DNA of 56,985 bases from a virus (Duplodnaviria; Caudoviricetes). Position 1 is the first letter of the stretch, and every line of letters begins with the position of its first letter. Position numbers and translations under genes: made by a program. The notes beneath the pieces are model-generated. The model worked only from the letters and a program-made list of their open reading frames with translations. It was not told the DNA's origin and did not search any database. Location: the IMG/VR virus record IMGVR_UViG_3300024334_000003, positions 1 to 56,985 of that record; one strand, 5' to 3'. Shown piece by piece: positions 9,101-24,320 of this stretch.

Positions 9101-9799
9101 TCTGCGCCAAAGGATGTAACTCAAGGGTTCACTAGATTCCTTGGCCCGTATGGAGACTTCCTTGACGATGCTAGAACGATTGCAGAAAACCTTGCGCTAC
9201 CACCCAACCGTGTGGTGTCGAGCAACGGTACGGAGTACTTCGTTAGACCAGAAGACAAGGAAGCAATGGAATTGCACTACTACATGAAGACTTTCCTGTT
9301 TGCTGGTCAGATGTTCGGGCTGTCTAGTAAAGAGATTGATGTTCTTGTACGTGAGATGGATGACCTACCAAGAGACAGGAGGTTGTCCAACGAGGAGGCA
9401 CTCGCTGCATACGAGGTGATTGCAGAAAAGTATGGCAACACCCTTGAAGGTGAGGTCATAGGCGAGGAGAGAATCATGAAGGTCATCGAAGACAAAGAAT
9501 CTGTGTTTGATAAGAAGCGTGCTGCTGACAGCTTCCGCTCTTCTGTCAAGCCATTGGTGGCGGAGCAGGTGATGAGGGATGAATACCCAGAGGGCTACAA
9601 GTCATATATCAGAGAGGCTCGCAAGCTACCTAAGCAACTTAAGAACGCTAGAGATTACTACGCCTACCTCAGGGGGAAGAGTCAAGACATGGAGCCGCAA
9701 GAGTTTGAAAAGTTCAAGACATTCATTGACTCTTATCTGGCCATCGTCAGACCTTCGTTCTACGTTGAGGAGCAATACATAGAATCCGTAGAAGAATGA
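65..9799 (+). CDS. Giant virion/ejection polyvalent protein; true start probably ATG 56766 across the junction (about 3286 aa). Contains a zincin metallopeptidase, a GNAT-like domain and further unassigned domains
   Basis: 3244-aa ORF open back through base 1; HEAFH at 2417-2431 with downstream EEFLVE; YDAF..LESLY..GWKPVARLDFNEEFAP.GW..PDVVF segment; last gene of the ejection-protein cluster. Confidence 0.75.
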   Translation: MVSEVGSLDSSSPTSLGGEQDTALSDFLTAPRIGNKRVPQFEADILNDYATSFDNAYLQTIYEKFDVSKFTDIVNYENSQGSYQDFLNAFNQSSTEDEKFTAKKELVDFLIEEGDPDFEINRRVLGGVTDEVYRDLTGNPELEGEDILTPIPLKNQVSKSLQDLGAGVATRSGAKLRENLPQSILEDPKKVSDYERYLYDNYGLSVDLNEDKYIGGVEVVEGGAFAGFGRSVSKAWKETMAGGNFILGDAVASMFGDDNWFTQWAIRAGEEGSAQAEEIAKELPISLERLAAKTDKVLSLKGDDGELDDLINDYLRMGGESVPMMGGAIVAGVLTRGAASRSTGLSQLRTSLKGLSRAEQIAKTRQFMAAGKTISQAKKIVKTSQTAGAFTATSAMGMGTQYNAVRDEEWFQEMSGAEKSAYTSIMGVAEGLPALVAANISARALGRLSKVGKENFVKGLLKATGIGMIEEGVTEGVTAGIQYITSTSFNPNVEFDFDDMMADVKDGVYGGIALGGGVSVTAQIPGAIYAGAMAVTSLPSVRDAIQIEKLTKEYDTAPDQATRQEIGRKLEAAVMGRATRNRNRRKFYEDLHENNNEAWSQLTGIQKKIIQLGLQFERTEKGETRDGFKAEMVALLEERTKLEKELGMEYDLDINKEFNRVSGRISKIDRYYNDYGSLFEGDSESTTVTGENADSVLDAINEVTFNRIDQVEKLSTGVSMKRALKNVVTVAKALSKTGKFEGIVIHKTDTSFMNATGQALGRGMWTGKGKIHIYAPAAMENTSFHEAFHDLVLESLGEEALQKLSVSLYKGLSGDLRKKYNNFLAGQRGVNRRQVQEMEGDPMTAEEFLVELLGDITTGDVGIEVKKGLVNQFKDFVAKAVNTIPGVEVDMTEADPRLDDLVTAIQKMTGQLAAGEAVTATEDLRDASVRAGYNAMMVELEDMSSKAQGIYARNRDVEEVTDAGRWAASMAEATDRMKELKMKMVLQVDALSEADAQKIIDDGGKLFMTKDGLGGAYLKSDGYMGGLFKNPDSQLRAISAPLQAIRAREGGKFYDAFATKLESLYVSNGWKPVARLDFNEEFAPEGWNDPDSPLIDKPDVVFFVKGEGKVGDGIRMDEYDDAFNYAEGLANGKAQAFIRELQNKPGLEDFLTKANLTETELEERKKELLLPESQRQKRKPIVVEALKNYAAQEINQEQFIEIIRRESPITPFPTVPEVPSILDVGSALTSNKLNAGIIDVNKTIPQGYYVALRLDIPAYDNYDVWVVSIHQGSTNDVRSPNMGGSIGYGQTGLISNVEFLAMPKAAFQIATQKGKAPIARMFGDWKNHDSQELRQRAVDIMAGDQYNVSDHPVGKHEGWVQVGMNPFRHSWFYDKRDGNPIVSASEVIQIGALVLAKDVEKVPVTDERFSIATEDGATIKFQHILPGQDGMDTKVSFSNKAQKFGRISNRYAVEDGEFEESANAVLHNAVFDEVLNESQVIVSSPDHMLVGTVFLDEEVLAEGGGGLFYPVRTKNTWAFGQKGDANAFKNTVNKMRGESPDGKVHVLLVSGTDDKVKSNITTMEAGLNLMDRLVGEGILTQNQIDKLIVDSLNDIIDALPAKKEGRYGEKVKFKGKRADIRAAVEASLRRTDNTSFELRRAYMDKLFANLGRMSVIRENPKSLDKVKEITGVSKLTKSQVGSTLKRTLVLSMIEGHLQGVPKDVVYASIEVDSDLEVDMMPGNEAFPAAVVMRDAGGNKKTPKIHLFADKPHVNDVMLDNETGLSRADFMEAKLADGEYAKKDGVRRSEANERKAIDGRWKGSMGLLQAAYGFGKTRPKAQAIVDSESKAQGSFLKKVSQMIDKVYPSPIISRDKRRKNPVTGLDESQQLDAFAYAKSEVIKTLMDMGMSKEGADMMFKKAVAYKQGRSQGKREGMRVAMANAAETRKMGTKAKNLQKALIQLKDKSKTFNEFLTKAIELIDGRMKEDAKTPFTRSQITGMVKAIRQAHKTSGKKIEEQGMEAMQTFIDKISVIFDKRDSRAELQRYLDGIKHAQKLQKRIKRMAKPKGRSGAAKNVTTYAKIANGLASINPALLPQNELEGFVSTLMSTISSMSKAKAVFEPEIEAYVGVSFAKTEAVVLYNKLSNYQAMEELGRQAVFMARAQLRAAKNNTTVEEEYKKLVQNYERSRLSSSRRAILKFIDDNPTIQHPDTGDTVVLNASNPAHVDLITQILAEQAATKEELQKDAIINDVLLPRIVANIDKLLEDTQIADILGIYSVADLDFDKLRARLNKLKRHHIINLDYRLDDYLINDSVYGIGYMHALVQGNIDMPSELEKLVKRKGLKARKGALFGMLDTVNSYLSNVIPTDRITFAKLRVAIGLAQLTNDFANADFIHSQVVELLENEINRITEKGGSVTTRMDRAIMQLYSMAKQMPEFEGERGQAEAAWYLELRNSMRRTIDYYSEQQSFSNEEIDEFEDAFNYMFGQAETLSEMIARVESERKDVVEMVQFTSDIHSSLMPAFRNYVERYLGKELVVEDNYTAFEVIPETGARDVDDMLSLRISLNDALASSSLSQTKKVAGSSFERNPRSLKGKNRIGLDFLSANERTLRDNIILSNTVGSVVRSSYVLNSDAMKAFIPNAKVRMELERKIMLYVQQDTGKVPPVFQPTFKAIGFRFINPINLLRNAVIVRAFGSFGIQTLKQSTVLTSVMFQTKNPIQSIPYLLTTLSEMVYFSLKTLAGKDAKLALDDGRYKLLQNSPVFQRDYEAGNIDPYTGRMSLDEGSLQKVVRTMSDISLKNLKGTDKVAAVASWFTFYGDALITEGVVESFDQIDWDAEAVAPNSTALSYADAMVNKDQAASTPREAADLYMQEKGVKSIIAYLAQNILLPFSRFAVNKKRSISSDAMRIYKGDAQAKKEGGVAMLGHAAELTLFAYIGKVLIPAISSIFIDDDEDEMPKDSRWRDILSQVVVDANPLPPMGIFDNQVKGALNKFLFYPYDVMMEGDFDLGDDDGYERWTRLGKGVPMYYKSAPKDVTQGFTRFLGPYGDFLDDARTIAENLALPPNRVVSSNGTEYFVRPEDKEAMELHYYMKTFLFAGQMFGLSSKEIDVLVREMDDLPRDRRLSNEEALAAYEVIAEKYGNTLEGEVIGEERIMKVIEDKESVFDKKRAADSFRSSVKPLVAEQVMRDEYPEGYKSYIREARKLPKQLKNARDYYAYLRGKSQDMEPQEFEKFKTFIDSYLAIVRPSFYVEEQYIESVEE

Positions 9800-13715: not shown

Positions 13716-15512
13716 TCAGAAGTGCTCTTGTTTGCCAACAAGTTGTTCACCAAGGGATGTGAATAGCTTTTGGTTAGGTGCGTGCATGGAGAATCCGCTC
13801 TGTGTTGAGTTCAATTCAAAAATCATTGGCTGCGCGTAGGGAGTAGGCTTGCCACCAGTGTCCACCTCTCGAACCTTTCGAACGTGCATCTCAATACACC
13901 TGCGCTGGAGAACATCGGGGTGCTGAATCTTTCTGTGTAACGTGATGAAGCAGTCACTACGATTCACCCACTTTCCGCCATGCTCAGTATCCTCTGCGTA
14001 AGGAGCGACTTGCAAACCGTCATCGCCTTTCCTGCGCTGGCTCTCAGTAATGCTGTGAGCGTTTACCCATACAGCTACATCCATGTTGTTGCTGAATGTC
14101 AGAAACTCTGACGCTGCCTCATAGTGATACTCGTGAGGGCCGACCCCACGGTTAGCACTCATCTCAATCTTAAGGCTGTTGTATGGGTCAACAAACAACC
14201 CGTCAATCGGATTCTGTCTGTGCACCTTTTCACAAAACAAGATGATGTCCATGTAACTGTAGGTCTTGCTGTTGTCAATAACAACGAAGTGCTTCTCAAC
14301 CCAGTCCCTAGCCTTCTTACGTTCGATGTGTGTGGTGCTACCAATTTTCTTATTGAGCGCAAACTGAACCAGCTTCATCTTCACAGCAGCAGAACGATTC
14401 TCTGAGCTGTAGATTACCCACCTCCAGTTGTGATGCATTGAACTTGCCACCATCATCCACAAAGCAAAGGTTGTCTTTCCTATGTTGCTGTGTCCATTAA
14501 TCATGACAAACTCCTTCTTGAATACGAAGCTCTCATCCATGAACTGATTGCCTGTGCTAAGACCCAAGGGTATCTTACCGTCCACATACTGCTCAATCCA
14601 ATCGTAGTCGATGTCGTCACTGCTGATAAAGGACATGTCCCCATCGTTCAGCTTCATGTCCCTCTTAATCTTCTCCTCGCTGTTAATGACCTCGCTAATC
14701 GGTAGCTTCTTTCCGTTCGCTATACCGTCGCTGATGGTTAACAAAGCCCCTTCCAAATTGTCAATGTCCCGCTTCTGAATCTCTCTTTCGAGTATCCAAC
14801 GAGCAACATCTTCTTCAACAATACCACTGGCAATGTACCCACCCATCAAACTAGAGGCTTTGACAAGAACGTTGTGCTTCTCTCCTTCCTCCGCCTTGCG
14901 TATCATAGCTGCTGCTATGTTTATCTTATTGAAGTCAGTCCTCCCAGACAAGTCTTTAACAACCTGATTCTGAGAATGCTCCGACATCATGCCACCATAC
15001 CTCTCGTACTCAGCCTTGACAACGATGTCTGGGTCGTATGACTCAAAGCACGCTCGGCTTTCATTCTCTCCGGTGCTGTCTAACTCAAGGCCGTACTGCT
15101 CATCGAAGTATTTAATCAGTGAGCGGTAGTGGTCACGATGTCTCTCCGTGTTTGTTATCTCTACTAGACCCTTAACTCCCTCACCACTGGGTGATGCCCA
15201 GCACGACATGATGTACTTGTCTCCAGCTAAGGCAGACTTAGTTCTTGTTACGTCAACATGGTCAAAGTCTAGGACTACCAAGCCACTGTGAAACTTTAAG
15301 CTGTCATCGCTTCGCTTGTTCTTCTCAAAGACTCCGCTAAAACATACCGCAGGTAGTTCTTGCTTAATAGACTTATCACCTTCCCTTATTAGCTCAACCT
15401 TTGGTTGGCTCTTGCCTTCCTTAATCCTCGTTAGAACTGTATCTAACGATGTTATTACTGCCTCCTGTGTGCGATAGATTGTCGGATAGATGGTTACCTT
15501 TTGATTGTTCAT
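13716..15512 (-). CDS. Primase-helicase (BT4734/VirE N-terminal domain plus DnaB-like helicase)
   Basis: KQELPAVCFSG..SGLVVLDFDH..SPSGEGVK..RACFESYDP; Walker A GHSNIGKT; FVDPYN. Confidence 0.85.
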   Translation of the reverse strand: MNNQKVTIYPTIYRTQEAVITSLDTVLTRIKEGKSQPKVELIREGDKSIKQELPAVCFSGVFEKNKRSDDSLKFHSGLVVLDFDHVDVTRTKSALAGDKYIMSCWASPSGEGVKGLVEITNTERHRDHYRSLIKYFDEQYGLELDSTGENESRACFESYDPDIVVKAEYERYGGMMSEHSQNQVVKDLSGRTDFNKINIAAAMIRKAEEGEKHNVLVKASSLMGGYIASGIVEEDVARWILEREIQKRDIDNLEGALLTISDGIANGKKLPISEVINSEEKIKRDMKLNDGDMSFISSDDIDYDWIEQYVDGKIPLGLSTGNQFMDESFVFKKEFVMINGHSNIGKTTFALWMMVASSMHHNWRWVIYSSENRSAAVKMKLVQFALNKKIGSTTHIERKKARDWVEKHFVVIDNSKTYSYMDIILFCEKVHRQNPIDGLFVDPYNSLKIEMSANRGVGPHEYHYEAASEFLTFSNNMDVAVWVNAHSITESQRRKGDDGLQVAPYAEDTEHGGKWVNRSDCFITLHRKIQHPDVLQRRCIEMHVRKVREVDTGGKPTPYAQPMIFELNSTQSGFSMHAPNQKLFTSLGEQLVGKQEHF

Positions 15513-15795
15513 CGCGCAGCTGTTGTATCTGGTTCTCGTACCACTTCGCTTTCTCCATGTCCTGTTCCGTGCTGTTCCCCGGCTTGTTCCCTGCCCGCAT
15601 GCGGTACTTGAAGGCGTTCATCTCGCAGAACGCGATGTATGAGTCTTTGCCCCAGATATCTATCATCATCTGCCACACTTGCTTGCCCCCCTTCTTGTAG
15701 TGTTCTGGGTTTATAGCGTCTAAGTCTGATTTGGATTCGGTCTTTGAAGGCTTCGAGAGTTTCGATGATGCCTTTGATTGTATCAATTTGCTCAT
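15421..15795 (-). CDS. DUF3310 (SaV-like) protein
   Basis: DAINPEHY..AFCEMNAFKYRMRAG.K..QDMEKAKWY. Confidence 0.75.
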   Translation of the reverse strand: MSKLIQSKASSKLSKPSKTESKSDLDAINPEHYKKGGKQVWQMMIDIWGKDSYIAFCEMNAFKYRMRAGNKPGNSTEQDMEKAKWYENQIQQLRDEQSKGNHLSDNLSHTGGSNNIVRYSSNED

Positions 15796-16120
15796 GAGGA
15801 GAAAGAAAGTTTTGAGCCTCTAAATTTAAGTCCTCCTTCTTAAAGGAGTCTAGCTTTTCCAGCACGATTCGAGAGGCTGTTTCGAAGTACGTTCTGTATT
15901 CAGGGCTTGAGACAAAATACATCTCATGACTCTGCTTGTAATGATAGATAGTTGTCCTGTCTTTATTGAACAGGTTTGAACACACGCTGTGGTGAAAGAA
16001 GGCTGATGTAGCATTGGCAAAAGCTGCCCTTATCTCTACCTGCTGTCGTGTTCTTGAGTTGTTTGGTTCTGCACCGATAGCCTCGATGTAGGCTTGGTAT
16101 GTTTGTCTGAAGATGTCCAT
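15509..16120 (-). CDS. Second DnaA-C-like HTH protein; start ATG 16120
   Basis: SRTRQQVEIRAAF..LFNKDRTTIYHY; the upstream in-frame extension lies inside the tRNA. Confidence 0.6.
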   Translation of the reverse strand: MDIFRQTYQAYIEAIGAEPNNSRTRQQVEIRAAFANATSAFFHHSVCSNLFNKDRTTIYHYKQSHEMYFVSSPEYRTYFETASRIVLEKLDSFKKEDLNLEAQNFLSPHEQIDTIKGIIETLEAFKDRIQIRLRRYKPRTLQEGGQASVADDDRYLGQRLIHRVLRDERLQVPHAGREQAGEQHGTGHGESEVVREPDTTAAR

Positions 16121-16135
16121 TGAAATAAAATTTTG

Positions 16136-16209
16136 TACTCCCGGCAGGACTCGAACCTGCAACATTCACCTTAGAAGGGTGATGCTCTATCCAGTTGAGC
16201 TACGAGAGC
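16136..16209 (-). tRNA. tRNA-Arg(UCU), CCA not encoded
   Basis: GCTCTCG-TAGCTCAACTGGATAGAGC-A-TCACC-CTTCTAA-GGTGA-ATGTT-GCAGG-TTCGAGT-CCTGC-CGGGAGT-A cloverleaf. Confidence 0.95.
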
Positions 16210-16212
16210 ATA

Positions 16213-16278
16213 GCGAGGGGAGCCAGAACAATTCACGAAACTGACTCCCCCCTTGCGGTCACGATGGTCTTGACCACT
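16213..16278 (-). ncRNA. Two-hairpin RNA in the tRNA 5' leader; candidate antisense sRNA
   Basis: GUGGUCA/UGACCGC stem and a 12-bp GGGGGGAGUCAG/CUGGCUCCCCUC stem; G-U pairs work only on the minus strand; loop UUUCGUGAAUUGUU. Confidence 0.5.
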
Positions 16279-16280
16279 AA

Positions 16281-16541
16281 TTAGAATGGCACTTCAGAAG
16301 TGCTTTGCTTATCTACCTTGCGTTGCTGTTCACCTTGACTATTAGGGTCATACACAGAGCAGAAGGCTTTCATCTTTCGATTGTCTTCTCGGTCTGGTAC
16401 AGAGACTACATCAATGTAAACTCTACCCTTTGCAGTTGCGTACTGCTTCAAGTTGTCCAACTCCTCCAGCGTAAATGATACTCGCTGGTTTACTCGTGGG
16501 GATTCAGTGTATCCCACATACACGTTGCTGTTATCAGCCAT
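16281..16541 (-). CDS. Small SSB-like protein
   Basis: 86 aa ending EVPF, downstream of the recombination genes. Confidence 0.5.
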   Translation of the reverse strand: MADNSNVYVGYTESPRVNQRVSFTLEELDNLKQYATAKGRVYIDVVSVPDREDNRKMKAFCSVYDPNSQGEQQRKVDKQSTSEVPF

Positions 16542-16551
16542 GTCTAAAAAA

Positions 16552-16821
16552 TTAAAAGGTTAATGTAAACTGCTTGTACCGGTTGCGGGATTGTACAACT
16601 CCCATAAGTCCTTCAGCGTACAGCCACATTAGGCGTAGCTTAGTTCTGTCCTGCTCGTCCATGGCATCAGCCAGTTCCTTGTAGGGCATCTTCAATTCAG
16701 TGATGGCATAGTATGCTGTAAAGCATCGGTCGGTGAAACCGTCCTTGCCAAAGTCCTTACACTTGGTAACGTCGATACCAAAGTGCAGGTTTGCTCGGTT
16801 GATTAACTCTTGTGCCTTCAT
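16552..16821 (-). CDS. Hypothetical protein
   Basis: 89-aa ORF, TAATG-coupled to the upstream gene. Confidence 0.7.
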   Translation of the reverse strand: MKAQELINRANLHFGIDVTKCKDFGKDGFTDRCFTAYYAITELKMPYKELADAMDEQDRTKLRLMWLYAEGLMGVVQSRNRYKQFTLTF

Positions 16822-17585
16822 TAGATTAATCCTTTGATGTAGAACGTCTCTGTCTCAAGGTTGTTGTCCAAGTATCGAGTAATTCTTTCTACTGCTTTGT
16901 CAAACTTCACCTTGCCATTCTCAATGGTTTCGTCACTGGCTTGGTACACACCGATGACGTAGGGATACGCCTTCTCTTGCGCCACCCAGTAGAACTTATC
17001 CAGACCAAGCACACTACAGTAGATGTAGGCTTGGATGTCGTACCCGTAGTCCCGTACTGCGTAACGGAATGCCGATAGGCTACGAGTAGTCTTGTGGTCG
17101 CTGATGTAGTCCTTGTTCAAGCAGTCCAAGAATCCACGTACAGGAACGCCTGAGATTTCTTTATTGAACTCGTGTTGGTAATCACCGATGAGGTACTCCT
17201 CCATGACACCAGTCACCTTCAATCTCTCAATCATTTCTTGAGCCTTCTTGAAATCGTCCTGACCAATCAGCTTGACTTTCTTCTCTTCGGCCTCCTCTTG
17301 GAAGTCCTTAACCCAAGCCTTGTACTTGTTAGTCATGCGTGGTGCACGACCACCAATCTCTTCACACTTTGCGCTGTCATTAAGCACTAAGAATTGTTTA
17401 TCGAAATCCTCTGGTGTAAACAGAAGGCAGTCGTACATACTTCCAAACGTTAGGGCTTCGCTCTCCTTGAAGAGCTGTCCCCTCATGTACATCTCCCACA
17501 AGCGCATGTCTTGCAGTGCGTACTTCACTGAGCTGTATGATAAGTGACCCTTACCTACGGCTTCTGCTAATTGAACTGACAGCAT
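16821..17585 (-). CDS. RecE/exonuclease VIII-like PD-(D/E)xK exonuclease (DUF3799-like)
   Basis: LSYSSVK..ALTFGS..RGFLDC..DHKTT..YGYDIQAYIY..VAQEK..PY. Confidence 0.8.
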   Translation of the reverse strand: MLSVQLAEAVGKGHLSYSSVKYALQDMRLWEMYMRGQLFKESEALTFGSMYDCLLFTPEDFDKQFLVLNDSAKCEEIGGRAPRMTNKYKAWVKDFQEEAEEKKVKLIGQDDFKKAQEMIERLKVTGVMEEYLIGDYQHEFNKEISGVPVRGFLDCLNKDYISDHKTTRSLSAFRYAVRDYGYDIQAYIYCSVLGLDKFYWVAQEKAYPYVIGVYQASDETIENGKVKFDKAVERITRYLDNNLETETFYIKGLI

Positions 17586-18103
17586 TAGGCTTCGGAGTAT
17601 TCCACTAGTTTGCTGTACTGAGCCTTACTGAACTTGGTCTTGGATTGCTTTTCAATCTTACCCCAAGCGTCCTTCCGGTCTTTAGCGTTCTTGAGGTAGG
17701 TCACCGCCTTTTGGTAGTCCTGCTCAACATCTTCCGGCTTGTCCTGTTTTGCGATAGCCTCTTTGACCTCATTAGCCGAGGCAATGCTGGCATCTATTCC
17801 AATGCCCATCACCGCAAGTGCACGACCAATGGCTGAGGTCTCACAGTTCTCAACAAAGGATGTCTTGTTGATGTTGCTTGAGGATTTCTCTTCGTGAGCA
17901 GTTCCTGTGGCAATGACACGTTGTTCAGTGTCTGCTACGATGGTCTTACATAAAACCTCCGTCCCATCATCAGACAAGGAGCAGTCGGTTGAGATTGTCC
18001 AGTTCTTGTACTGGTCTTCCTGTCGGAAGAATTTGATACGCTCGTTTACTTCGACGTATTGTTTGCCACGGATGTTCGTGGTCTTGAATTTGTGTTGTGA
18101 CAT
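17585..18103 (-). CDS. Rad52/Sak-like single-strand annealing protein
   Basis: KQYVEVNERI..ATGTAHE..VENCETSAIGRALA..GIG; paired with the exonuclease. Confidence 0.7.
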   Translation of the reverse strand: MSQHKFKTTNIRGKQYVEVNERIKFFRQEDQYKNWTISTDCSLSDDGTEVLCKTIVADTEQRVIATGTAHEEKSSSNINKTSFVENCETSAIGRALAVMGIGIDASIASANEVKEAIAKQDKPEDVEQDYQKAVTYLKNAKDRKDAWGKIEKQSKTKFSKAQYSKLVEYSEA

Positions 18104-18122
18104 ATTCTATTTAATAAAGGAT

Positions 18123-18405
18123 TCAACTTCTTTCATTATCCATCCTTGTAGTATCACTACTGGGTGTAGTAGGATTGACAGGAGGAGTAGGGGTGATGCT
18201 ATTAGCATCTTGATTGCTCTCATCATAGGCTTTAACTAAATCTTCGTATTCATCAAGTAGTACACTCTGTTGTCGTATCAAGTTGTTGTAAGCTTCCCTC
18301 TCGACGTGAACCGCTTTTGCAAAGTTCGATGTTTTCCGTGACATTTTCAACAGATTACCGCACATTTTTTTCCACATGTTGATTGCTTCATTCATGAGTC
18401 CCATT
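18123..18405 (-). CDS. Hypothetical protein (start uncertain)
   Basis: 3' part of the 18123..18512 ORF; coiled coil plus Pro/Thr-rich tail. Confidence 0.45.
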
Positions 18406-18610
18406 CTTTTAAAGGGTCTCGCAACCCAAGGTTTTCTGCTTCGTCTGCGGCCAGCATGCATGCCTGCACCATCTGACTCTGGTCTATCCTGCCTTGGTCG
18501 TACCTGCGGCAAGCATCAAGGAACATCCGGCACACTGTCTTACTATCGTGAAGGTCGAAGTGCATTGTCAACATCTCCACACGGCTCATATCTTCTGTTG
18601 TCTTACTCAT
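18392..18610 (-). CDS. Early hypothetical protein
   Basis: MSK start directly downstream of a promoter copy. Confidence 0.75.
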   Translation of the reverse strand: MSKTTEDMSRVEMLTMHFDLHDSKTVCRMFLDACRRYDQGRIDQSQMVQACMLAADEAENLGLRDPLKEWDS

Positions 18611-18626
18611 TGTAAAAGGGGTTATG

Positions 18627-18668
18627 GTTTATACATCTACAACGTTTCGCGTTGCTCTTTTATTGTGT
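18627..18668 (-). promoter_or_regulatory. ECF-like early promoter copy
   Basis: Minus CACAAT-N17-CGTT (plus AACG 18641, ATTGTG 18662). Confidence 0.7.
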
Positions 18669-18924
18669 CCTTCACCGTAATTGACAGCTCGTGCCAATCT
18701 ATTGTCTGAAGGCATCCATCAACGAAGTCCTTGAGGATTCCGTTAGGTAGTTTGCTGTAGGTATCCTCGACCATCATATCGAAGCAATCTCTACACCACT
18801 GGGGACTTGCTCCCGTTAGGTCTTTCGGATTCTCGGTGTCGATGTAGGTCTCTGCTAGACCATCAACAAAACCCCAGACGTTGACCAACCACGTCTCTCT
18901 GTTGCGGAATGATTCGTAACTCAT
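18637..18924 (-). CDS. Conserved phage early protein
   Basis: NRETWLVNVW..TIDWHEL motif. Confidence 0.8.
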   Translation of the reverse strand: MSYESFRNRETWLVNVWGFVDGLAETYIDTENPKDLTGASPQWCRDCFDMMVEDTYSKLPNGILKDFVDGCLQTIDWHELSITVKDTIKEQRETL

Positions 18925-19325
18925 GGTGTTGGTGCTTTAAGAATACCAGTCAACCGGTGATAGTCGCTCAGGATTCCGTTGCGACGAGCCATATCCATGC
19001 CTTGCTCGTAGGTGAAGTACTTGCGGTCGGGTTCTTCCATGTGGTCTTCCTCGGACACATCGTCCCATACGCTGTAGCGCAGAACTCCATCATCACCATA
19101 AACCCAGTACTCATCTCCCTCGCTGAAGGGAAACTTGAGCCTACGCTGGTACTCTGACCAGTCTTGCTTGAATGCCTCCAGCTTCTCATTAATCTTCAGC
19201 TTGTGATACTTCTTGTAGCTGACTTGCATTGGCACTCTCGATGAGTTGGTGTTGCCTGCGTACACTTGACAGAAGGCCATCATTGCCTCGTCTGTCCACT
19301 CGATATTACTATTTACTTTACTCAT
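18921..19325 (-). CDS. Early hypothetical protein
   Basis: MSK start downstream of a promoter copy. Confidence 0.8.
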   Translation of the reverse strand: MSKVNSNIEWTDEAMMAFCQVYAGNTNSSRVPMQVSYKKYHKLKINEKLEAFKQDWSEYQRRLKFPFSEGDEYWVYGDDGVLRYSVWDDVSEEDHMEEPDRKYFTYEQGMDMARRNGILSDYHRLTGILKAPTP

Positions 19326-19341
19326 GATGAAATGTTTTTAG

Positions 19342-19404
19342 GTTTCTATATCTATAACGCCAGAGTATCTGGGTTATTGCACTCCGTTTGTTAACGGATG
19401 TTAA
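19342..19404 (-). promoter_or_regulatory. ECF-like early promoter plus upstream TTAACA-N4-TTAACA box
   Basis: Plus AACG 19356, ATTG 19376, TGTTAACGGATGTTAA 19389-19404. Confidence 0.75.
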
Positions 19405-19884
19405 TTACCAAGATGAGCTGTACTCGAAGTCCATCGAGTGCTTCATATCCTTGGCTTGGATTTGCTGTTGCACAAGCTTCTCTATAACCTTTGCGGTCAT
19501 GCGCAAGTCTTCTAAGTAGTACTCATCAAACTCTGTGCTCCCGTAGAACATCCCACCTTGTGTGGGAAGTAGTTCCTCGGCTCGCTCTGGCGATGCGATG
19601 ACGGCAAGGCATGCGTGTCGCAACTCTTGTAGTTGCTCGATACCTACGTAGTACTTCCCGCAGTCATCATCTCCGTCCTGTACGTTATCAACGAACCACT
19701 TATGGATGGCGTTGGCCTTTCTCCAGCACAGCACCTCCTCGCGGATGCTGGTCACTTCGCCCACGCTTCCGAGGAAGGGTACGCTCTTGTTGTTCATCTT
19801 AGCAGAGACCTTGTAGTCTCTGTCTGGTCGGTGACTCCAGTTCCTCACATAGTGATTCCGAGTCAGGTACATATCTAATCCCAT
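19405..19884 (-). CDS. Conserved phage protein (MGLDMYL..WRKANAIH family)
   Basis: WRKANAIHKWFV.NVQ..DDC..ELLPT..G..YGST.FDEYY. Confidence 0.85.
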   Translation of the reverse strand: MGLDMYLTRNHYVRNWSHRPDRDYKVSAKMNNKSVPFLGSVGEVTSIREEVLCWRKANAIHKWFVDNVQDGDDDCGKYYVGIEQLQELRHACLAVIASPERAEELLPTQGGMFYGSTEFDEYYLEDLRMTAKVIEKLVQQQIQAKDMKHSMDFEYSSSW

Positions 19885-19909
19885 GGTGAATTGTTTTTGG
19901 GGGGTTAAC

Positions 19910-20143
19910 TTAAATGTCCAGTGATTCTAGCTTCCAGAATAACGATATGACATCGTTGAAGTCTGTGAACTTGGTCTCAGAAACTTGGTCTCCGCTCTCT
20001 GAGAACACTACAGCTTCATTGATTCCGTTGAGCGTTGTGATTGACAGCTCAAGCTTTCCGATTTGAATCTTCATGACTCCGGCTTCGGTGGCCTTGTTTT
20101 GTGTCACGCTGAAGTGACGTGGGGTTTTATCGAACATACTCAT
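19910..20143 (-). CDS. Early hypothetical protein
   Basis: Shared AAAAACAATTCA leader; promoter upstream. Confidence 0.8.
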   Translation of the reverse strand: MSMFDKTPRHFSVTQNKATEAGVMKIQIGKLELSITTLNGINEAVVFSESGDQVSETKFTDFNDVISLFWKLESLDI

Positions 20144-20159
20144 ATTGAATTGTTTTTTG

Positions 20160-20201
20160 GTTTCTATAGTTAGAACGGCAGAAACTCGTGAGTTATTGTG
20201 C
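20160..20201 (-). promoter_or_regulatory. ECF-like early promoter copy
   Basis: Plus AACG 20174, ATTGTG 20195; embedded in the 3' end of the upstream gene. Confidence 0.7.
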
Positions 20202-20403
20202 CATCCTCGGATAAACTTCCTTGGTCGATGAGGTGACGAGCAGTACGACCATAGCTACCTTGAAGTGACCAAGCCATGCCAGTTTGGATGAGCACGGAGA
20301 ACAACTCCAATACTTCTTCAACTGTAGATTGTCGCTCCTCGAAGCTGATAATCATGTCGGTCAACTGACCTCTCTCTGGGATTGCGGCTTTACTCTTCAT
20401 CAT
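20170..20403 (-). CDS. Conserved phage early protein; probable start 20403 or 20400
   Basis: LELFSVLIQTGMAWSLQGSYGRTARHLI motif. Confidence 0.75.
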   Translation of the reverse strand: MMKSKAAIPERGQLTDMIISFEERQSTVEEVLELFSVLIQTGMAWSLQGSYGRTARHLIDQGSLSEDGTITHEFLPF

Positions 20404-20641
20404 CTTCCTCAATGGTTTCAAATTCAACTCCCGTGTACTCTTCGATTGCGCCATCTATCCTGTCATGCAGTTCGGTGACAAAATCCTTGAGGTCACTGAG
20501 CATTTCCTTTGCGCTCATGCTTCGCGTGCAACACTGAATCTCGTAGTGCATCTCACGAGCATGTGGTAGTAGCTCGGATACCTCCATGATGGCGGGAGCG
20601 CAGTCCCATCCGTCTTCTGTTGTCTTAATGATTTTACTCAT
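20390..20641 (-). CDS. Early acidic hypothetical protein
   Basis: Shared leader and MSK start. Confidence 0.8.
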   Translation of the reverse strand: MSKIIKTTEDGWDCAPAIMEVSELLPHAREMHYEIQCCTRSMSAKEMLSDLKDFVTELHDRIDGAIEEYTGVEFETIEEDDEE

Positions 20642-20660
20642 GGTGAATTGTTTTTGTGGT

Positions 20661-20723
20661 GTTTCTATAGTTAGAACGCACCTTGTTCTGAGATATTGTC
20701 CGTCGTTTGTTAACGGATGTTAA
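20661..20723 (-). promoter_or_regulatory. ECF-like early promoter plus TTAACA-N4-TTAACA box
   Basis: Plus AACG 20675, ATTGTC 20695, TGTTAACGGATGTTAA 20708-20723. Confidence 0.75.
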
Positions 20724-20877
20724 TTAACTCCATCAAGCTGTACTTAGCATCAAGTGCATCAGCTACTAGCATCTGGGATTCTAGGTCAACTCCTTGGAAG
20801 AAGTTGTATGCTTCCACCAGCTCTTCCTTCGATAGGTTAAGCTCGATGAATGGGTTGTGTGCGTTATCGAACATCAT
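20710..20877 (-). CDS. 55-aa hypothetical protein, not in the ORF track
   Basis: MMFDNAHNPFIELNLSKEELVEAYNFF...; ATGA-coupled to the upstream stop; fills the gap. Confidence 0.6.
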   Translation of the reverse strand: MMFDNAHNPFIELNLSKEELVEAYNFFQGVDLESQMLVADALDAKYSLMELINIR

Positions 20878-22079
20878 GCCGCATGTATTTGGTTCTGGTG
20901 ATTAGTCAAGTTGCTTTCAGCCTGCTCTTGCTCCTCCTCCAGCTTAACCAACTCAGCCCTTTCTTGAACGAGCTGTTCTCTCATGTTGTTGATGCGATTG
21001 ACTTTGTTCTCCACTCGTCGCTTTGCTGTAGCATCTCTGTCTGATAGCCCTCGCAACTTATCAGCATCCTCATACTTGAGTCCAGATGCAATCACGTTCG
21101 CCTCTGGCTTGACCTTAGAGCACTCAACGCACCCGAAAGACTCTGAGCCAACTTTCACTACAGAGAACGTAGTCTGCTCTGGCAGTTCCACGCACTGGGC
21201 ATCGGCCAGCTGTCGAATCTCGTCCTGTGTGAACAGGTCTTGAATCAATGGCATACCTCGCTCGCATTGTCGAATCGCTGACTCTACTGCCCGCAGTTCT
21301 CGGTCGTGTAGCTTATAAGACAGCCCCACGATAACGTCGTACAGCTTGTCCTCGAACGCCACTATCCTCCATGGATTGACTGAATTGGTAGTCAGTTTTT
21401 CTACGACATACACAGGGGAGTCAGTATCTTTTACGACACGTAGTTGGTGACCAATGAAGAGTACACGAGTAAACATGTCAATGTGGTCATCGAACACAGC
21501 ATCGGTGAACTCGTAGCACACCCGCCCATCTTCAAGTCCAGCGCGTAGCGGATTACCCTTGCGTACTGCCTTGAGATATTTGCCTCTCTTGATAGACCTT
21601 TTAACGTCTTCGTTGTGGTCTAGTAGCTCTTGGTTGTCAATGCTCTTTTTGCCTAAGACAAATTCTAAAACTCGGTTTATGTCGTACTCACTAACACGAC
21701 TGCTGTATGATGAATGGCTTGACCCATTGCCGTTCGCCTCCTCCAATACAGCCTCACCTTCCTCACATAGCGATATCGTGTAGTCAGACTTGTTTGGTAC
21801 GACTTCAACGAACCGCTTGCATATAGCCACATCATCCCCACTAATTACAGACAACCTAGCCTTTGCCATAGCCTTGGCGTTCTCCGGTTTTTGGAGCTGA
21901 TAGTAATCTGCTGGGATGAGGCCGAAGCTGTTAGCTGTAAGCTTGATGTACTCGTCTCGGATTGCTCGCTCAATCTTGTAGATGTTTGCAAACGAATCTT
22001 TGCGTAGTCTTACAAGTGCGATGATGGCTGACTTGGAATCAGGCGTGAAGGCAATGTCGTTTTTCTTGGTAACTCTCAT
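20874..22079 (-). CDS. Early hypothetical protein (401 aa, C-terminal coiled coil)
   Basis: Long ORF with shared leader and promoter. Confidence 0.85.
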   Translation of the reverse strand: MRVTKKNDIAFTPDSKSAIIALVRLRKDSFANIYKIERAIRDEYIKLTANSFGLIPADYYQLQKPENAKAMAKARLSVISGDDVAICKRFVEVVPNKSDYTISLCEEGEAVLEEANGNGSSHSSYSSRVSEYDINRVLEFVLGKKSIDNQELLDHNEDVKRSIKRGKYLKAVRKGNPLRAGLEDGRVCYEFTDAVFDDHIDMFTRVLFIGHQLRVVKDTDSPVYVVEKLTTNSVNPWRIVAFEDKLYDVIVGLSYKLHDRELRAVESAIRQCERGMPLIQDLFTQDEIRQLADAQCVELPEQTTFSVVKVGSESFGCVECSKVKPEANVIASGLKYEDADKLRGLSDRDATAKRRVENKVNRINNMREQLVQERAELVKLEEEQEQAESNLTNHQNQIHAA

Positions 22080-22099
22080 ATTGAATTGTTTTTAATGAT

Positions 22100-22163
22100 G
22101 TCTTCTGTAGTAATAACGCGGCAAGTTTGCTGTTATTGTGCGCAGTATGTTAACGGATGTTAA
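22100..22163 (-). promoter_or_regulatory. ECF-like early promoter plus TTAACA-N4-TTAACA box
   Basis: Plus AACG 22115, ATTGTG 22135, TGTTAACGGATGTTAA 22148-22163. Confidence 0.75.
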
Positions 22164-22453
22164 TCCTTCACGTAGTTCTCGTCTAAGGTCACGAAGACCT
22201 TTACCTCCACGCATTCGCCGAATAGTCCTGTCAGGTCACATCCACAGATGTATCGCTCACTTGACGTGCACTCGAACTCGATGCTAACAAAGTCTGGGTA
22301 GTCCTCCTCAGCCGTCGCGTTATACCAACCCACCTCACGCTCAAGGAGGAACTCCTCGTTTGCGTTGAGACCCTCGAAGTCTCCGTTGAAGATTGCAGGA
22401 AGGAAGTGCTTGCCGCAAGTCATGGTGTCTATCTTAATCATTTTCTGTCCCAT
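22160..22453 (-). CDS. Early hypothetical protein
   Basis: 97 aa; LPAIFNGDFEGL..EE. Confidence 0.75.
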   Translation of the reverse strand: MGQKMIKIDTMTCGKHFLPAIFNGDFEGLNANEEFLLEREVGWYNATAEEDYPDFVSIEFECTSSERYICGCDLTGLFGECVEVKVFVTLDENYVKD

Positions 22454-22465
22454 ACTATTTTCTGT

Positions 22466-22801
22466 TTAGTGTCCGGCGGCGCGTCTAGCCTTCCATCCAT
22501 TAGGCTTGTGAAACTTGGTCTTTACAGCCTCACCTTGATACGCCCAAGAGTCCTCAAGCGGAGTCAGGTTCTTTCCATACCAAACCTCATCGACGTTCCA
22601 GCCCTTAGTCCTCTCCATGTATGCAATGAAGTTGTCCACGTGGCTCTCGTTGTTGAACGTCTTGGAGCATGCCCATGTGCCCTTCCCCCATGCACTACCA
22701 GTGTAGAACTGGATGGTGGCGCGGAACTTGCGGTCGGTTCGGACTACTCCAGTCTCTGGGTAGCTTGCGTAGGCAATCGGTGTTGAGTCGTATTTTTTCA
22801 T
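22466..22801 (-). CDS. Early hypothetical protein
   Basis: 111 aa directly downstream of a promoter. Confidence 0.75.
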   Translation of the reverse strand: MKKYDSTPIAYASYPETGVVRTDRKFRATIQFYTGSAWGKGTWACSKTFNNESHVDNFIAYMERTKGWNVDEVWYGKNLTPLEDSWAYQGEAVKTKFHKPNGWKARRAAGH

Positions 22802-22810
22802 GTTTCTCTC

Positions 22811-22874
22811 GTTTCTATAGTAGTAACGCTGGATGTATTCGTTTTATTGTGCGCTACTTGTGAATTAATGTTAA
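22811..22874 (-). promoter_or_regulatory. ECF-like early promoter plus variant box
   Basis: Plus AACG 22825, ATTGTG 22846, TGTGAATTAATGTTAA 22859-22874. Confidence 0.75.
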
Positions 22875-22898
22875 CGCCCCGAAGGGCGGAGGGGAGGC

Positions 22899-23825: not shown

Positions 23826-23862
23826 GGCTTTCAATTTGTGGGGAGACTGGATTGCCTCCCCT

Positions 23863-23904
23863 GTTTCTATAGTGTTAACGTATCTCGGTTTCTGCTTATT
23901 GTGC
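23863..23904 (-). promoter_or_regulatory. ECF-like early promoter of ardC, followed by a leader hairpin (about 23840-23861)
   Basis: Plus AACG 23877, ATTGTG 23898; GGGGAG..CTCCCC stem between promoter and ATG. Confidence 0.75.
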
Positions 23905-24213
23905 AAGTGCTGAGAAATCTCCCATGCCGATACTGGACTTGAGATTGATGTGCGTTCTCCTGATATCGTTCATCGTGCTCCTTGCGGCTACTAGCTCGTC
24001 TAGGGCTACTGCCTCACGCTCTTGGATATTGCGCTTAGTCTGGTCGCACAAGCACAAGGCTTCAGCGGTTCGCAACTCACTTTCGATGGATTCAAGGCTG
24101 AACTTAGCCATCCCGAATGCAGTCTCAGCAAGGACTCTGGCACTCTTCAAGTGCATCTCAACCATTTCGATAGTCGCTTGCAATCCGTTGTTTTTGTTGG
24201 TTATCTCGTTCAT
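23896..24213 (-). CDS. First gene of the early arm, coiled-coil hypothetical protein
   Basis: 105 aa with A/C-rich leader. Confidence 0.7.
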   Translation of the reverse strand: MNEITNKNNGLQATIEMVEMHLKSARVLAETAFGMAKFSLESIESELRTAEALCLCDQTKRNIQEREAVALDELVAARSTMNDIRRTHINLKSSIGMGDFSALAQ

Positions 24214-24264
24214 AATCAGTGTGTTATGTGGTTTATGTTATCTATTTAGCTATCGCGTTGTTGA

Positions 24265-24320
24265 GTGTATAACGGATATCAATCTTGTTCTAGTATGAGC
24301 TAATTGCCAACAGATGTTAA
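24265..24320 (-). promoter_or_regulatory. Degenerate early promoter plus box
   Basis: Plus AACG 24271, AGTATG 24292, TGCCAACAGATGTTAA 24305-24320 with the same spacings. Confidence 0.5.

Follow-up and report, generated by a model that had tools for sequence, protein, structure and literature searches.

A terminator-like hairpin ahead of a tRNA-Arg in marine Bacteroidota phages: a candidate riboregulator with a lineage-specific antisense loop

The phage record IMGVR_UViG_3300024334_000003, analysed over its full 56,985 nt (hereafter the window), encodes on its minus strand a small gene followed almost immediately by a tRNA-Arg, and the spacer between the two folds into a stable hairpin whose loop is complementary to the leaders of other genes of the same phage. 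This arrangement raises the question of whether the hairpin is simply a structural element at a transcript boundary, or whether its loop has become an antisense seed that acts on a set of phage mRNAs, as a first-pass annotation of the sequence had proposed. Knowledge of RNA-based regulation among Bacteroidota phages is very sparse.

The spacer extends from the stop codon of an 86-aa ORF (16281-16283, minus strand) to the tRNA-Arg and measured 71 nt (16210-16280, minus strand), one more than the 70 nt first given; the two minus-strand hairpins and the 12-bp stem described with it were recovered, and the fold was a real one (-33 kcal/mol, z -4.46), with none of 200 shuffled sequences folding as well. 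Hairpin 2 (16215-16252, minus strand), which ends 5 nt short of the tRNA and has a G-rich/C-rich stem, comprises a 5' arm (16241-16252), a 14-nt loop (16227-16240) and a 3' arm (16215-16226), its 12 stacked pairs consisting of 8 G-C, 2 A-U and 2 G-U pairs. Folded alone it reached -22.7 kcal/mol (z -4.02) and its opposite strand just -15.3 kcal/mol, and the sense strand was the better folded in all three pairs compared (-22.7/-15.3, -21.6/-12.8 and -19.1/-15.1 kcal/mol). The loop reads UUUCGUGAAUUGUU on the minus strand; its bases 16227-16236 are the exact complement of a 10-mer shared by several leaders, and all 10 are unpaired in the minimum-energy fold. Hairpin 1 (16255-16277, minus strand) is weaker and variable even between close relatives, with four distinct versions inside the closest group.

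Hairpin 2 belongs at once to the 3' untranslated region that follows the 86-aa gene and to the 5' leader of the tRNA-Arg (16135-16209, minus strand; anticodon UCU (TCT); detected by ARAGORN and by the Rfam tRNA model at 68.4 bits), and the 5 nt that separate it from the tRNA on the same strand leave no space for a tRNA promoter of its own. It has one feature of an intrinsic terminator, a G+C-rich stem right behind a gene. The short loop of such terminators (about 3-8 nt) is missing, the loop here being 14 nt, and no U-rich tract follows the stem, which continues as CGCUAU and then the tRNA; the hairpin was absent among the 18 sites of a terminator scan that required a 3-8-nt loop and a T-rich tail. 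An Rfam cmscan of 15500-24500 at E <= 1 returned just the tRNA and a weak CRISPR-repeat match, with no match to C4 antisense RNA.

The 10-mer AACAATTCAC has exactly three copies in the 56,985-bp record, namely the loop, as its reverse complement (16227-16236), and the minus-strand leaders at 19886-19895 and 20643-20652. These leaders occupy positions -11 to -2 of the start codons at 19884 (159-aa gene) and 20641 (83-aa gene), ending 1 nt ahead of each AUG, and complementarity to the loop is complete at 10/10 bases, as first reported, with a predicted duplex of -11.6 kcal/mol in both cases. The 9-nt pairing claimed for two further genes also held, since one-mismatch copies lie at 20145-20154 and 22081-22090 (minus strand), ahead of the starts of a 77-aa gene (20143) and a 401-aa gene (22079), each with 9/10 bases and a predicted duplex of -8.6 kcal/mol. 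The leader of a 134-aa gene (19327-19336, minus strand; start 19325) had been credited with 9 of 10 pairs and proved to differ at two of the ten positions, one of them a would-be G-U pair, leaving 8/10 bases and a predicted -6.6 kcal/mol. A late leader at 43769, for which the possibility of pairing had been raised from the outset, likewise differs at two of ten positions and nearly equals it (predicted duplex -6.7 kcal/mol).

Genome-wide, exact copies were those of the loop and the two leaders, and copies with at most one mismatch numbered 6 against 5.33 expected, a value reached by 41 of 100 shuffles and thus no enrichment. It is the placement that is notable, with four of the six copies standing immediately ahead of start codons within 2.2 kb and one forming the loop. 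When shuffled loops were compared with the 17 start regions called upstream, a 10-nt match had p = 0.021 (1000 shuffles) and, in a second run, p = 0.013 (300 shuffles).

Upstream sequences showed that the shared leader follows a three-block promoter kept in relatives, one of whose six copies lies at 20663-20723 (minus strand) and the others at about 19344-19404, 20162-20222, 22103-22163, 22813-22874 and 23865-23925 (all minus strand). At three of these six, a sigma-70 scan picked out a -35-like and a -10-like hexamer set 17 nt apart, and the leader motif lies 15-25 nt downstream of the conserved promoter. The target leaders carry no Shine-Dalgarno (SD) sequence and no self-structure (self-fold energy 0.0). 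Promoters of Bacteroidetes are known by their -7/-33 motifs; a candidate tRNA promoter in or upstream of the loop showed by eye at most partial likeness to these or to the three-block motif, and was dropped. The hairpin and its putative targets may share the same transcripts.

Judged from its sequence affinities, the host is a member of the Bacteroidota. All 141 of 141 terminase matches were to phages of Flavobacterium, Cellulophaga, Bacteroides and similar hosts, or to uncultured records, in agreement with the assignment made at first sight, as are the leaders without SD. Bacteroidota hosts translate without SD pairing and rely on open, A-rich leaders. Initiation in Bacteroidetes is described in one account as tuned by mRNA structure and upstream bases and not by SD (PMC6847099). 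The 86-aa gene itself (16281-16541, minus strand; ORF list) is kept in 12 aligned lineages, and its product had no Pfam or PHROG match and an AlphaFold model of low confidence (pLDDT 59); the label 'SSB-like' once attached to it has a C-terminal ...VPF tail as its sole basis. The hairpin sits among replication genes, with an exonuclease upstream and a primase/helicase downstream. A giant ORF elsewhere in the window (2-9799; 3265 aa, open at the record start) had no PHROG, significant Pfam or PDB sequence match, and these searches gave no support for its being a virion RNA polymerase.

A DNA search with 15000-19000 against isolated phages matched the tRNA alone (132 records) and gave no close relative, so relatives were gathered via the primase/helicase protein, using the best 80 of 392 metagenome relatives. 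Of 167 related loci, 68 had a tRNA-Arg on the strand that corresponds to the one in the window. Hairpin position and pairing were kept in about 12 related seawater lineages, each with a different loop that could not be aligned with the others. In W, L005, L012 and L009, hairpin 2 and the tRNA were 100% invariant over 126 alignment columns and the flanks differed; the homologous helix of other lineages carried compensatory changes at 3 of 8 consensus pairs. In 14 of 16 lineages, sequence upstream of the tRNA folded with z <= -2.0; in the other two, the segment analysed cut through the hairpin. In most lineages with a G-rich hairpin, its end lay 2-8 nt ahead of the tRNA; in three lineages the distance was 27, 67 or 122 nt, the last (about 122 nt) in L039.

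Comparison of hairpin interiors points to where the element came from. Among tRNA-bearing lineages the interior spanned at least 10 nt in 10 of 12; L100 and L120 have loops of 4-5 nt, too small for a seed, and L040-L043 have retained U/C-rich tails behind their hairpins. Behind the gene, 7 of 16 dereplicated relatives without the tRNA carried a G-run hairpin; the interiors measured 13, 5, 4, 6, 12, 4 and 4 nt, and most of the tails were T-rich. Because the form of an ordinary terminator is still present in these distant tRNA-less relatives, hairpin 2 probably has a terminator origin.

The leaders have a history of their own. In L012, six start regions carried 9-10 loop-complementary bases, all at -11 to -2, and the orthologue of the 19325 leader has the 9-mer. 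The leader of the 83-aa gene (20641) was retained in L018, L020 and L031; the loop region of L018 offers just 7 bases complementary to its retained motif leader, and the loop of L031 matches another 10-mer of the leader kept there, closer to its 5' end. Relatives that keep the leader and not the loop had been named at the outset as evidence against a regulatory pairing, and this was found in part, in that L018/L020 and L031 retain the motif leader without the matching 10-mer. Matches in further lineages overlap the start codon or sit at varied positions in the leader.

Whether loops and start regions nevertheless correspond within each genome was assessed by a matched-versus-mismatched permutation over 12 lineage representatives, using the share of start regions with a loop complement of at least k nt. 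At k = 7 this share was 0.143 in the loop's own genome and 0.073 in other genomes (p 0.0014), with p 0.0005 at k = 6 and 0.009 at k = 8, and each of the 12 settings of start-region span and k gave p between 0.0004 and 0.024. Leaving out single lineages gave p <= 0.013 and removing the window together with L039 gave p 0.039, and alternative representative sets gave p < 0.05 in 60 of 60 cases (median 0.0026). Controls using the sense, reversed and complement-only loops were flat (p 0.12-1.0), including the complement-only control of the same composition (p 0.12-0.32); sense-orientation matches were not enriched (0.027 on the diagonal, 0.025 off it). Equal-length neighbouring sequence gave p 0.22-0.63, and coding interiors p 0.19-0.78 in five of six settings and 0.023 in one. 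Flagged targets recurred by orthologue, with the 401-aa gene flagged in 4 of 8 genomes and an approximately 80-aa gene in 3 of 5; for the 77-aa gene, 3 members out of 10 (from 9 genomes) were flagged. The own-genome excess was about two-fold, in matches mostly of 7-8 nt.

Tests against shuffled loops gave a different result. For the longest complement, low p-values among 23 loop types were confined to the window (0.021), L031 (0.013) and L109 (0.062), the other 20 lying at or above 0.23, and the combined Fisher p was 0.26, or 0.48 without the window. Allowing G-U pairs gave a Fisher p of 0.85 and duplex energy one of 0.08 (with L039 represented by a non-G-run hairpin and the L032 match cut at +6), while counts of start regions with an 8-nt complement gave 0.19 to 0.40. 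The K sub-lineages alone, by exact permutation, yielded p 0.017 at k = 7 and 0.48 at k = 6. As several statistics were tried, the best p-values overstate the evidence. On the loop-leader covariation that the first-pass annotation had proposed to test, the own-genome permutation gives a positive signal (60/60 sets), the shuffle tests are mostly negative (Fisher p 0.26-0.48) and the K-only permutation is mixed; on this divided evidence, loops and start regions may tend to change together across these related phages.

In three RNA libraries from seawater, the phage contigs of greatest depth were those of the 86-aa gene, although contig depth cannot rank genes. Its contigs stop at 16258, 16265 and 16307, and contigs show neither RNA ends nor RNA levels; the stops at 16258 and 16265 both fall at the border of variable and invariant sequence and are explained by assembly branching. 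In one relative, an RNA-library contig spans the gene, hairpins and tRNA, for which DNA carry-over is possible.

The explanation that we put forward, tentatively and as one nearly as apt to be right as wrong, is that a terminator-derived hairpin, jointly with cutting of the tRNA 5' end by RNase P, forms the end of the upstream mRNA, and that its enlarged loop pairs with start regions. The sequence, the fold, its conservation and the statistical association of loops with own-genome start regions are observed, and from them we infer RNase P cutting, 3'-end protection, pairing in the cell, repression and its timing. The ancestor would have been an ordinary intrinsic terminator behind the 86-aa gene, whose long G-rich stem was closed by a 4-6-nt loop and followed by a U-rich tail. 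The tRNA-bearing clade would mostly have lost this tail, transcription would run on into the tRNA, and RNase P cutting at the tRNA 5' end would leave an upstream RNA that ends 4-8 nt past a stable hairpin, an instance of tRNA punctuation. This terminal hairpin should shield the upstream RNA from 3' exonucleases, and the RNase P fragment would correspond to the 3' terminus of the upstream gene's mRNA and not by itself to a free 70-nt RNA. In a less certain step, the loop of this clade would have enlarged to 10-28 nt, in a lineage-specific manner, to expose an antisense seed. The seed would pair with the start regions, free of structure and of SD, that belong to a set of promoter-proximal genes (those at 19884, 20641, 20143 and 22079 in the window), and pairing would reduce translation of these targets as the replication-module transcript accumulates.

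The same hairpin could also serve as structure only, a terminator remnant that shields the mRNA 3' end left by RNase P or dampens read-through into the tRNA, with a drifting loop whose match to the leaders is due to chance, aided by U-rich loops lying opposite A-rich leaders. That stem and position are kept while loops cannot be aligned between lineages is what drift would produce, as are the canonical terminators at the same place in relatives, the U-rich tails persisting in L040-L043, the small loops of L100 and L120, the non-significant shuffle tests for 20 of 23 loop types, and the failure of leader-keeping lineages to keep the loop. Composition, however, would not be expected to yield an own-genome excess specific to strand and start region (complement-only p 0.12-0.32), and a hairpin with a purely protective role is weakened by a large loop, such as 10 of 12 lineages have. 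The loop is also invariant in the sub-lineages of the closest group despite differing flanks, an argument that weighs little for 14 nt (estimated p about 0.1). We regard a purely structural role as a serious possibility, if a somewhat doubtful one.

Two further accounts invoke DNA or copying errors in place of RNA function. The 10-mer could be a double-strand regulator site at promoters, present as an inverted copy in the hairpin, or the hairpin a cruciform or replication signal; the motif does lie 15-25 nt downstream of a conserved promoter and the hairpin stands amid replication genes (exonuclease, primase/helicase). Owing to G-U pairs, however, the sense RNA strand folds markedly better than the other in all three pairs compared, matches across lineages are antisense-only (sense 0.027 vs 0.025) when a DNA site could face either way, and those of other lineages overlap the start codon or vary in leader position, which together make a DNA-level element improbable. 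A neutral relic, produced by repeated inverted copying of the phage's own leader-like sequence (template switching or illegitimate recombination) and decaying without function, would be in keeping with the reverse complements of the window and L031 loops, each of which resembles another part of one promoter-proximal leader, as would be seen if a shared antisense copy had decayed along separate paths in the two lineages. This account requires repeated events in several lineages, antisense every time, from supposed source sequences 3-6 kb distant, and meets a loop that is invariant inside the closest group; we consider it very improbable.

Should the regulatory explanation be true, one short RNA, a by-product of tRNA processing, would switch off a set of phage genes, and the locus would show both a terminator evolving into a regulator and the co-evolution of loops and targets among close, seawater-abundant phages. 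The 10-nt loop and 10-nt leader form a directly testable pair. If structure alone is involved, there is still a clear natural example of tRNA punctuation behind a protective hairpin. More tentatively still, the elements of this widespread marine Bacteroidota podophage family may represent a terminator, behind a replication-module gene, turned RNase P-punctuated riboregulator, in which the stem would stabilise the RNA and a fast-evolving loop seed would track the SD-less starts of small promoter-proximal genes, each lineage with its own loop-leader code, as a protein-free counterpart of T4 RegA/RegB in a phylum whose translation starts rely on leaders free of structure.

Neither Rfam nor the one literature collection searched gave a description of such an element, and none of the papers listed contains the term 'tRNA leader'; its nearest counterparts are found among several known systems. 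With intrinsic terminators it shares a G+C-rich stem right behind a gene, and the full small-loop, U-tailed form occurs in distant relatives; it differs in its 14-nt loop, its CGCUAU tail and a tRNA 5 nt on that needs to be transcribed. In tRNA punctuation, 3' ends made by RNase P are protected by upstream structure, as in mitochondrial punctuation, plant t-elements and MALAT1/mascRNA. RNase P of E. coli is described as processing polycistronic mRNAs too (PMC3858429). Here, likewise, a tRNA lies right behind an mRNA, and the predicted cleavage would set the mRNA 3' end beside a stabilising structure, whereas the established cases are not known to be linked with an antisense seed in the protective structure. 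Bacterial sRNAs also derive from 3' UTRs and tRNA spacers, for example a sponge RNA made from a tRNA operon's 3' external transcribed spacer, and their seeds are usually single-stranded and 5' of the terminator, many being Hfq-dependent. The locus resembles these in that a candidate regulator would arise from a non-coding part of a transcript through housekeeping RNases and carry a stable 3' hairpin, and is unlike them in placing its candidate seed in a hairpin loop, in a host phylum without SD and in a phage-encoded RNA.

The closest functional parallels come from phages. T4 RegA and RegB are described as shutting down many pre-replicative phage mRNAs through a shared start-region feature, RegA by binding A/U-rich unstructured sites around the AUG and RegB by cutting GGAG in SD sequences (PMC3014915). 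These are proteins, unlike the candidate here, and a protein of this type acting on the shared leader would explain leader conservation without a role for the loop. The C4 antisense RNA of phages P1 and P7 is reported to be cut from a longer transcript with host RNase P, and its loops a' and b' to pair with the target mRNA, partly covering the ribosome-binding site; its specificity is attributed to a few loop bases, which vary together with their targets between related phages (PMC5320573, PMC3858429). As described there, C4 is tRNA-like and RNase P makes its 5' end, whereas at the present locus a true downstream tRNA is involved and RNase P would make the 3' end. The two also differ in having no sequence or structure homology (tRNA alone in the Rfam search of 15500-24500), in that C4 provides temperate-phage immunity and nothing here points to lysogeny, and in the several candidate targets here versus one operon. 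What they have in common is a loop complementary to target start regions, here at 10/10 bases twice and at 9 twice, in a pairing that is predicted.

The record was complete (56,985 bp, estimated completeness 99%), with all genes between about 24 kb and 10.9 kb carried on the minus strand. Within this block, a 71-nt spacer separated an 86-aa ORF (16281-16541, minus) from a downstream tRNA-Arg (anticodon UCU; 16135-16209, minus). The spacer folded as two hairpins (-33 kcal/mol, z -4.46), a weak hairpin 1 (about 16255-16277, minus) and hairpin 2 (16215-16252, minus), in which a stem of 12 stacked pairs (8 G-C) closes a 14-nt loop, UUUCGUGAAUUGUU. In isolation, hairpin 2 reached -22.7 kcal/mol (z -4.02) and the opposite strand only -15.3 kcal/mol, because two G-U pairs turn into mismatches there. 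Since the sense fold outdid the opposite strand in two relatives as well as in the window, hairpin 2 is predicted to be a structure of the sense-strand RNA. A search of Rfam with 15500-24500 matched the tRNA alone, and the element therefore lies outside described RNA families.

Relatives gathered with the neighbouring primase/helicase comprised 35 loci, the best 80 of 182 from viral contigs (with alignment) and the best 80 of 392 from metagenomes. A tRNA-Arg was found on the matching strand in 68 of the 167 collected loci, essentially those whose primase was at least about 59% identical. Across the closest group (the window and its nearest relatives, primase 94-99% identical), hairpin 2 and the tRNA (16135-16260) formed 126 alignment columns that were 100% invariant, and hairpin 1, immediately upstream, existed in four versions; one locus of this group carried a C-to-U change with a G-U pair retained. 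Flanking genes of the 94% subgroup differed at many positions despite the invariant block, whose constancy is due to strong selection or else to a recent exchange of this segment. Other lineages carried a homologous hairpin in the same position (G-rich 5' arm, C-rich 3' arm), with stems that differed in sequence, compensatory changes in 3 of 8 consensus pairs and interiors wholly different from lineage to lineage (10 to 28 nt in 10 of 12 lineages; 4-5 nt in loci L100 and L120). The distance to the tRNA was 2-8 nt in most lineages and 27, 67 or 122 nt in three, and a branched structure with one variable hairpin was present instead in two groups of loci (L017-L022 with L097 and L099; L044-L049 with L110-L117). 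Folding z-scores were -2.0 or lower in 14 of 16 lineages, the remaining two windows cutting through the hairpin. At L120:5212-5271, 4.7 kb from the primase, the tRNA-Arg and small-loop hairpin followed a 92-aa hydrophobic ORF rather than the 86-aa gene; this hairpin-tRNA unit may have moved.

Sixteen dereplicated relatives lacked the tRNA. The next gene immediately followed the 86-aa gene in nine of these, and seven carried a long-stem G-run hairpin with interiors of 13, 5, 4, 6, 12, 4 and 4 nt and a mostly T-rich tail, the two longer interiors (13 and 12 nt) pairing internally. Judged by its sequence, this hairpin is an ordinary intrinsic terminator. Interiors of at least 10 nt were found in 10 of 12 tRNA-bearing versus 2 of 7 tRNA-less lineages (one-sided Fisher p about 0.03, calculated by hand). 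Because large interiors go with the tRNA-bearing lineages and terminator forms with the tRNA-less relatives, the hairpin of the tRNA-bearing clade looks like a terminator minus its U-tail and plus a large loop. The tRNA lies 5 nt from hairpin 2, which leaves no room for a promoter of its own, and it is therefore transcribed by read-through of the hairpin. RNase P cleaves tRNA precursors generally at the tRNA 5' end, and such a cut here would place the end of the upstream RNA immediately after the strong hairpin. We hold this structural part, a terminator-derived hairpin that is read through and probably left by RNase P at the end of an RNA, with high confidence. Separately, in tRNA-less relatives (L087:9762-9817; L052, L061, L071:9522-9577; others), the gene after the 86-aa gene opened with a very stable conserved hairpin within the first 55 nt from the AUG (-27 to -28 kcal/mol), which may serve translational control.

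Contigs identical to the window were present in three seawater RNA libraries from different studies. Those of the 86-aa gene were the deepest (14.7, 6.45 and 9.9 versus 2-7 for the other phage contigs listed), a depth that cannot rank genes, and ended at 16307, 16265 and 16258. The latter two positions mark the border between the strain-variable hairpin 1 and the invariant block starting near 16260; these two stops are likely due to assembly branching and are not read as RNA ends. In one relative a single contig connected the 86-aa gene, across hairpins 1 and 2 and the tRNA, to the gene that follows; it may represent unprocessed transcript or DNA.

The first-pass annotation had claimed that the loop of hairpin 2 is antisense to a leader shared by early mRNAs, and the exact complement was borne out. 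The 10-mer AACAATTCAC occurred in exactly three copies in the whole record, one being the reverse complement of loop bases 16227-16236 and the other two occupying positions -11..-2 relative to the starts of the 159-aa gene (19884) and the 83-aa gene (20641). One-mismatch copies preceded the starts at 20143 (77-aa) and 22079 (401-aa), and the leaders of 19325 (134-aa) and the late gene 43769 were two positions off. Predicted loop-leader duplexes were -11.6 kcal/mol for 19884 and 20641, -8.6 for 20143 and 22079, -6.6 for 19325 and -6.7 for 43769, and the target leaders folded without self-structure. Allowing up to one mismatch, the motif was not enriched genome-wide (6 observed versus 5.33 expected); the placement of the 10-nt match in called start regions was uncommon against shuffled loops (p 0.013-0.021). 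The unusual feature is thus where the copies sit, not their number, and given the post hoc choice of the finding the match is modestly unlikely by chance.

Whether relatives keep or change loop and leader together received a divided answer. The motif in 4-6 leaders and the matching loop were both confined to the closest group, in which L012 had 9-10 complementary bases in six start regions. One motif-bearing leader each was retained in L018/L020 and in L031; the L018 structure offered only 7 bases complementary to it, and the L031 loop was complementary over 10 nt to another stretch of the leader retained there, in its 5' part, which was the loop's longest match in 6.5 kb (shuffle p 0.007-0.013). 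When the longest complement of each of 23 loop types was compared with 1000 shuffles, p was 0.021 for the window, 0.013 for L031, 0.062 for L109 and at least 0.23 for the other 20, a non-significant result overall (Fisher p 0.26; 0.48 without the window). Scores of loop-leader pairing that tolerated G-U pairs or used energy were likewise non-significant against shuffles. Counts of start regions with complements of at least 7 nt exceeded shuffles (Fisher p 0.0004, from lineages that are not independent), and at 8 nt gave p 0.19-0.40. As a further observation, at L032:8230-8245 and in L109 a spacer stretch at the 86-aa stop codon, outside the G-hairpin, was complementary over 8-9 nt to a leader common to three promoter-proximal genes of the lineage's own genome.

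A matched-versus-mismatched test, in which every interior from 12 lineage representatives was scored against the start regions of each genome and the assignment permuted, gave an excess for own genomes. The fraction of own-genome start regions that contained a complement was 0.310, versus 0.206 in other genomes, at k=6 (p 0.0005), 0.143 versus 0.073 at k=7 (p 0.0014) and 0.057 versus 0.023 at k=8 (p 0.009). This excess held for each of the 12 pairings of k with a start-region window (p 0.0004-0.024), for all 60 alternative representative sets (median p 0.0026, maximum 0.031), on leave-one-out (p ≤ 0.013; 0.039 without the window and L039) and when the set was restricted to simple hairpins (p about 0.002, or 0.004-0.006 with the window left out). 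Control loops (sense, reversed, complement without reversal) yielded no own-genome excess (p 0.12 to 1.0), nor did equal-length sequence just upstream of the hairpin or downstream of the tRNA (p 0.22-0.63); coding interiors as control targets gave p 0.023, 0.44, 0.36, 0.78, 0.27 and 0.19. Five sub-lineages of the branched group each had a variable hairpin, differing in sequence between them, that was complementary over at least 7 nt to 2-3 of their own start regions (exact permutation among the five, p 0.017 at k=7 and 0.48 at k=6). Flagged targets recurred in orthologue groups, namely the 401-aa gene in 4 of 8 genomes, a roughly 80-aa gene in 3 of 5, the 77-aa gene in 3 of 10 members (9 genomes) and the 159-aa gene in 2 of 3. 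The permutation is a proper covariation test, strand-specific and insensitive to composition and to the bias of U-rich loops towards A-rich leaders, and kinship among the genomes makes it conservative; it was chosen after other statistics had failed, and the effect was about two-fold with most matches short. We regard the result as genuine, though moderate, evidence of antisense co-evolution between hairpin interiors and the start regions of the same genome.

A conserved promoter, about 60 bp long, supplies these leaders as its transcribed end; it has six minus-strand copies between 19.3 and 23.9 kb, each ahead of a gene (about 19344-19404, 20162-20222, 20663-20723, 22103-22163, 22813-22874 and 23865-23925), with a minus-strand variant before 18610. 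Its three blocks comprised a -35-like hexamer, a 17-nt spacer and a -10-like hexamer, followed about 15 nt on by a block with a terminal TATAGAA-like heptamer, and the same architecture preceded orthologous genes in relatives (primase 60-99% identical). A sigma-70 scan detected the hexamers at three of the six copies; the TATAGAA-like block presumably recalls promoters of the SP6/T7 type. The crAss-like phage phi14:2 of Cellulophaga has middle genes that the host polymerase transcribes and that are distinguished by an 'extended tripartite motif' including -35- and -10-like blocks, and its early transcripts have no common motif (10.1101/2020.03.07.982082); the window's promoter-proximal genes may therefore be early or middle.

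A Bacteroidota host is well supported by sequence comparison, with terminase matches to 141 records (best identity 46.5%), all phages of Flavobacterium, Cellulophaga, Bacteroides, Tenacibaculum and the like, or uncultured. An SD-like leader was found in 0 of the window's 68 called genes (leader list read by eye). Bacteroidetes initiation relies on unstructured leaders and upstream bases rather than SD (PMC6847099), which makes occlusion of open leaders by a short antisense stretch mechanistically plausible.

Other features were also noted in the window. Another G-rich/C-rich hairpin, with a stem resembling that of hairpin 2 and a loop of about 10 nt, lay at about 23825-23865 (minus), in the interval separating the first promoter from the start at 23825. 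It sits at the 5' end of the transcript of an anti-restriction-like gene (22899-23906, minus; phrog_7245, E 2e-68) and was kept in L005, L018, L020 and L027. The anti-restriction-like gene and one for a Peptidase_M43 (pappalysin-like) domain protein (24832-25989, plus; Pfam E 9e-19) sit either side of the point where gene direction diverges. Inside a coding region, 19537-19569 (minus) matched a CRISPR repeat model weakly (25.6 bits versus a gathering score of 36, E 0.094), most likely by chance. A giant ORF (2-9799, plus; at least 3265 aa) runs off the record start and had no PHROG, significant Pfam or PDB sequence match; its size and the crAss-like/Flavobacterium-phage kinship of the terminase make it a candidate virion-packaged polymerase worth testing.

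Our best explanation, held tentatively at close to an even chance, combines the terminator-derived hairpin and RNase P punctuation with a loop that would act as an antisense seed. The main rival keeps an identical hairpin and gives the loop no role; a RegA-like protein acting on the shared leader would then explain leader conservation without the loop. The shuffle tests and the leader without a matching loop in L018/L020 sit comfortably with such a roleless loop, and the own-genome antisense excess speaks for the seed; we judge the rival a serious possibility, if a somewhat improbable one. The loop-leader relation proposed in the first-pass annotation thus has comparative support, whereas its early timing, shut-off and released sRNA were unsupported. 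If the antisense seed is true, it adds a regulator to a phage group and host phylum without such a description in the literature searched.

Among known systems, hairpin 2 apparently descends from an intrinsic terminator yet lacks two features that define one, the short loop and the U-tail. In T4, the same job is done by the proteins RegA and RegB (PMC3014915). The nearest case in working principle, of different architecture and without homology, is the C4 antisense RNA of P1/P7, which is RNase P-processed, has loops that base-pair with the ribosome-binding region and mask part of it, and owes its specificity to a few bases differing between phages (PMC5320573, PMC3858429).
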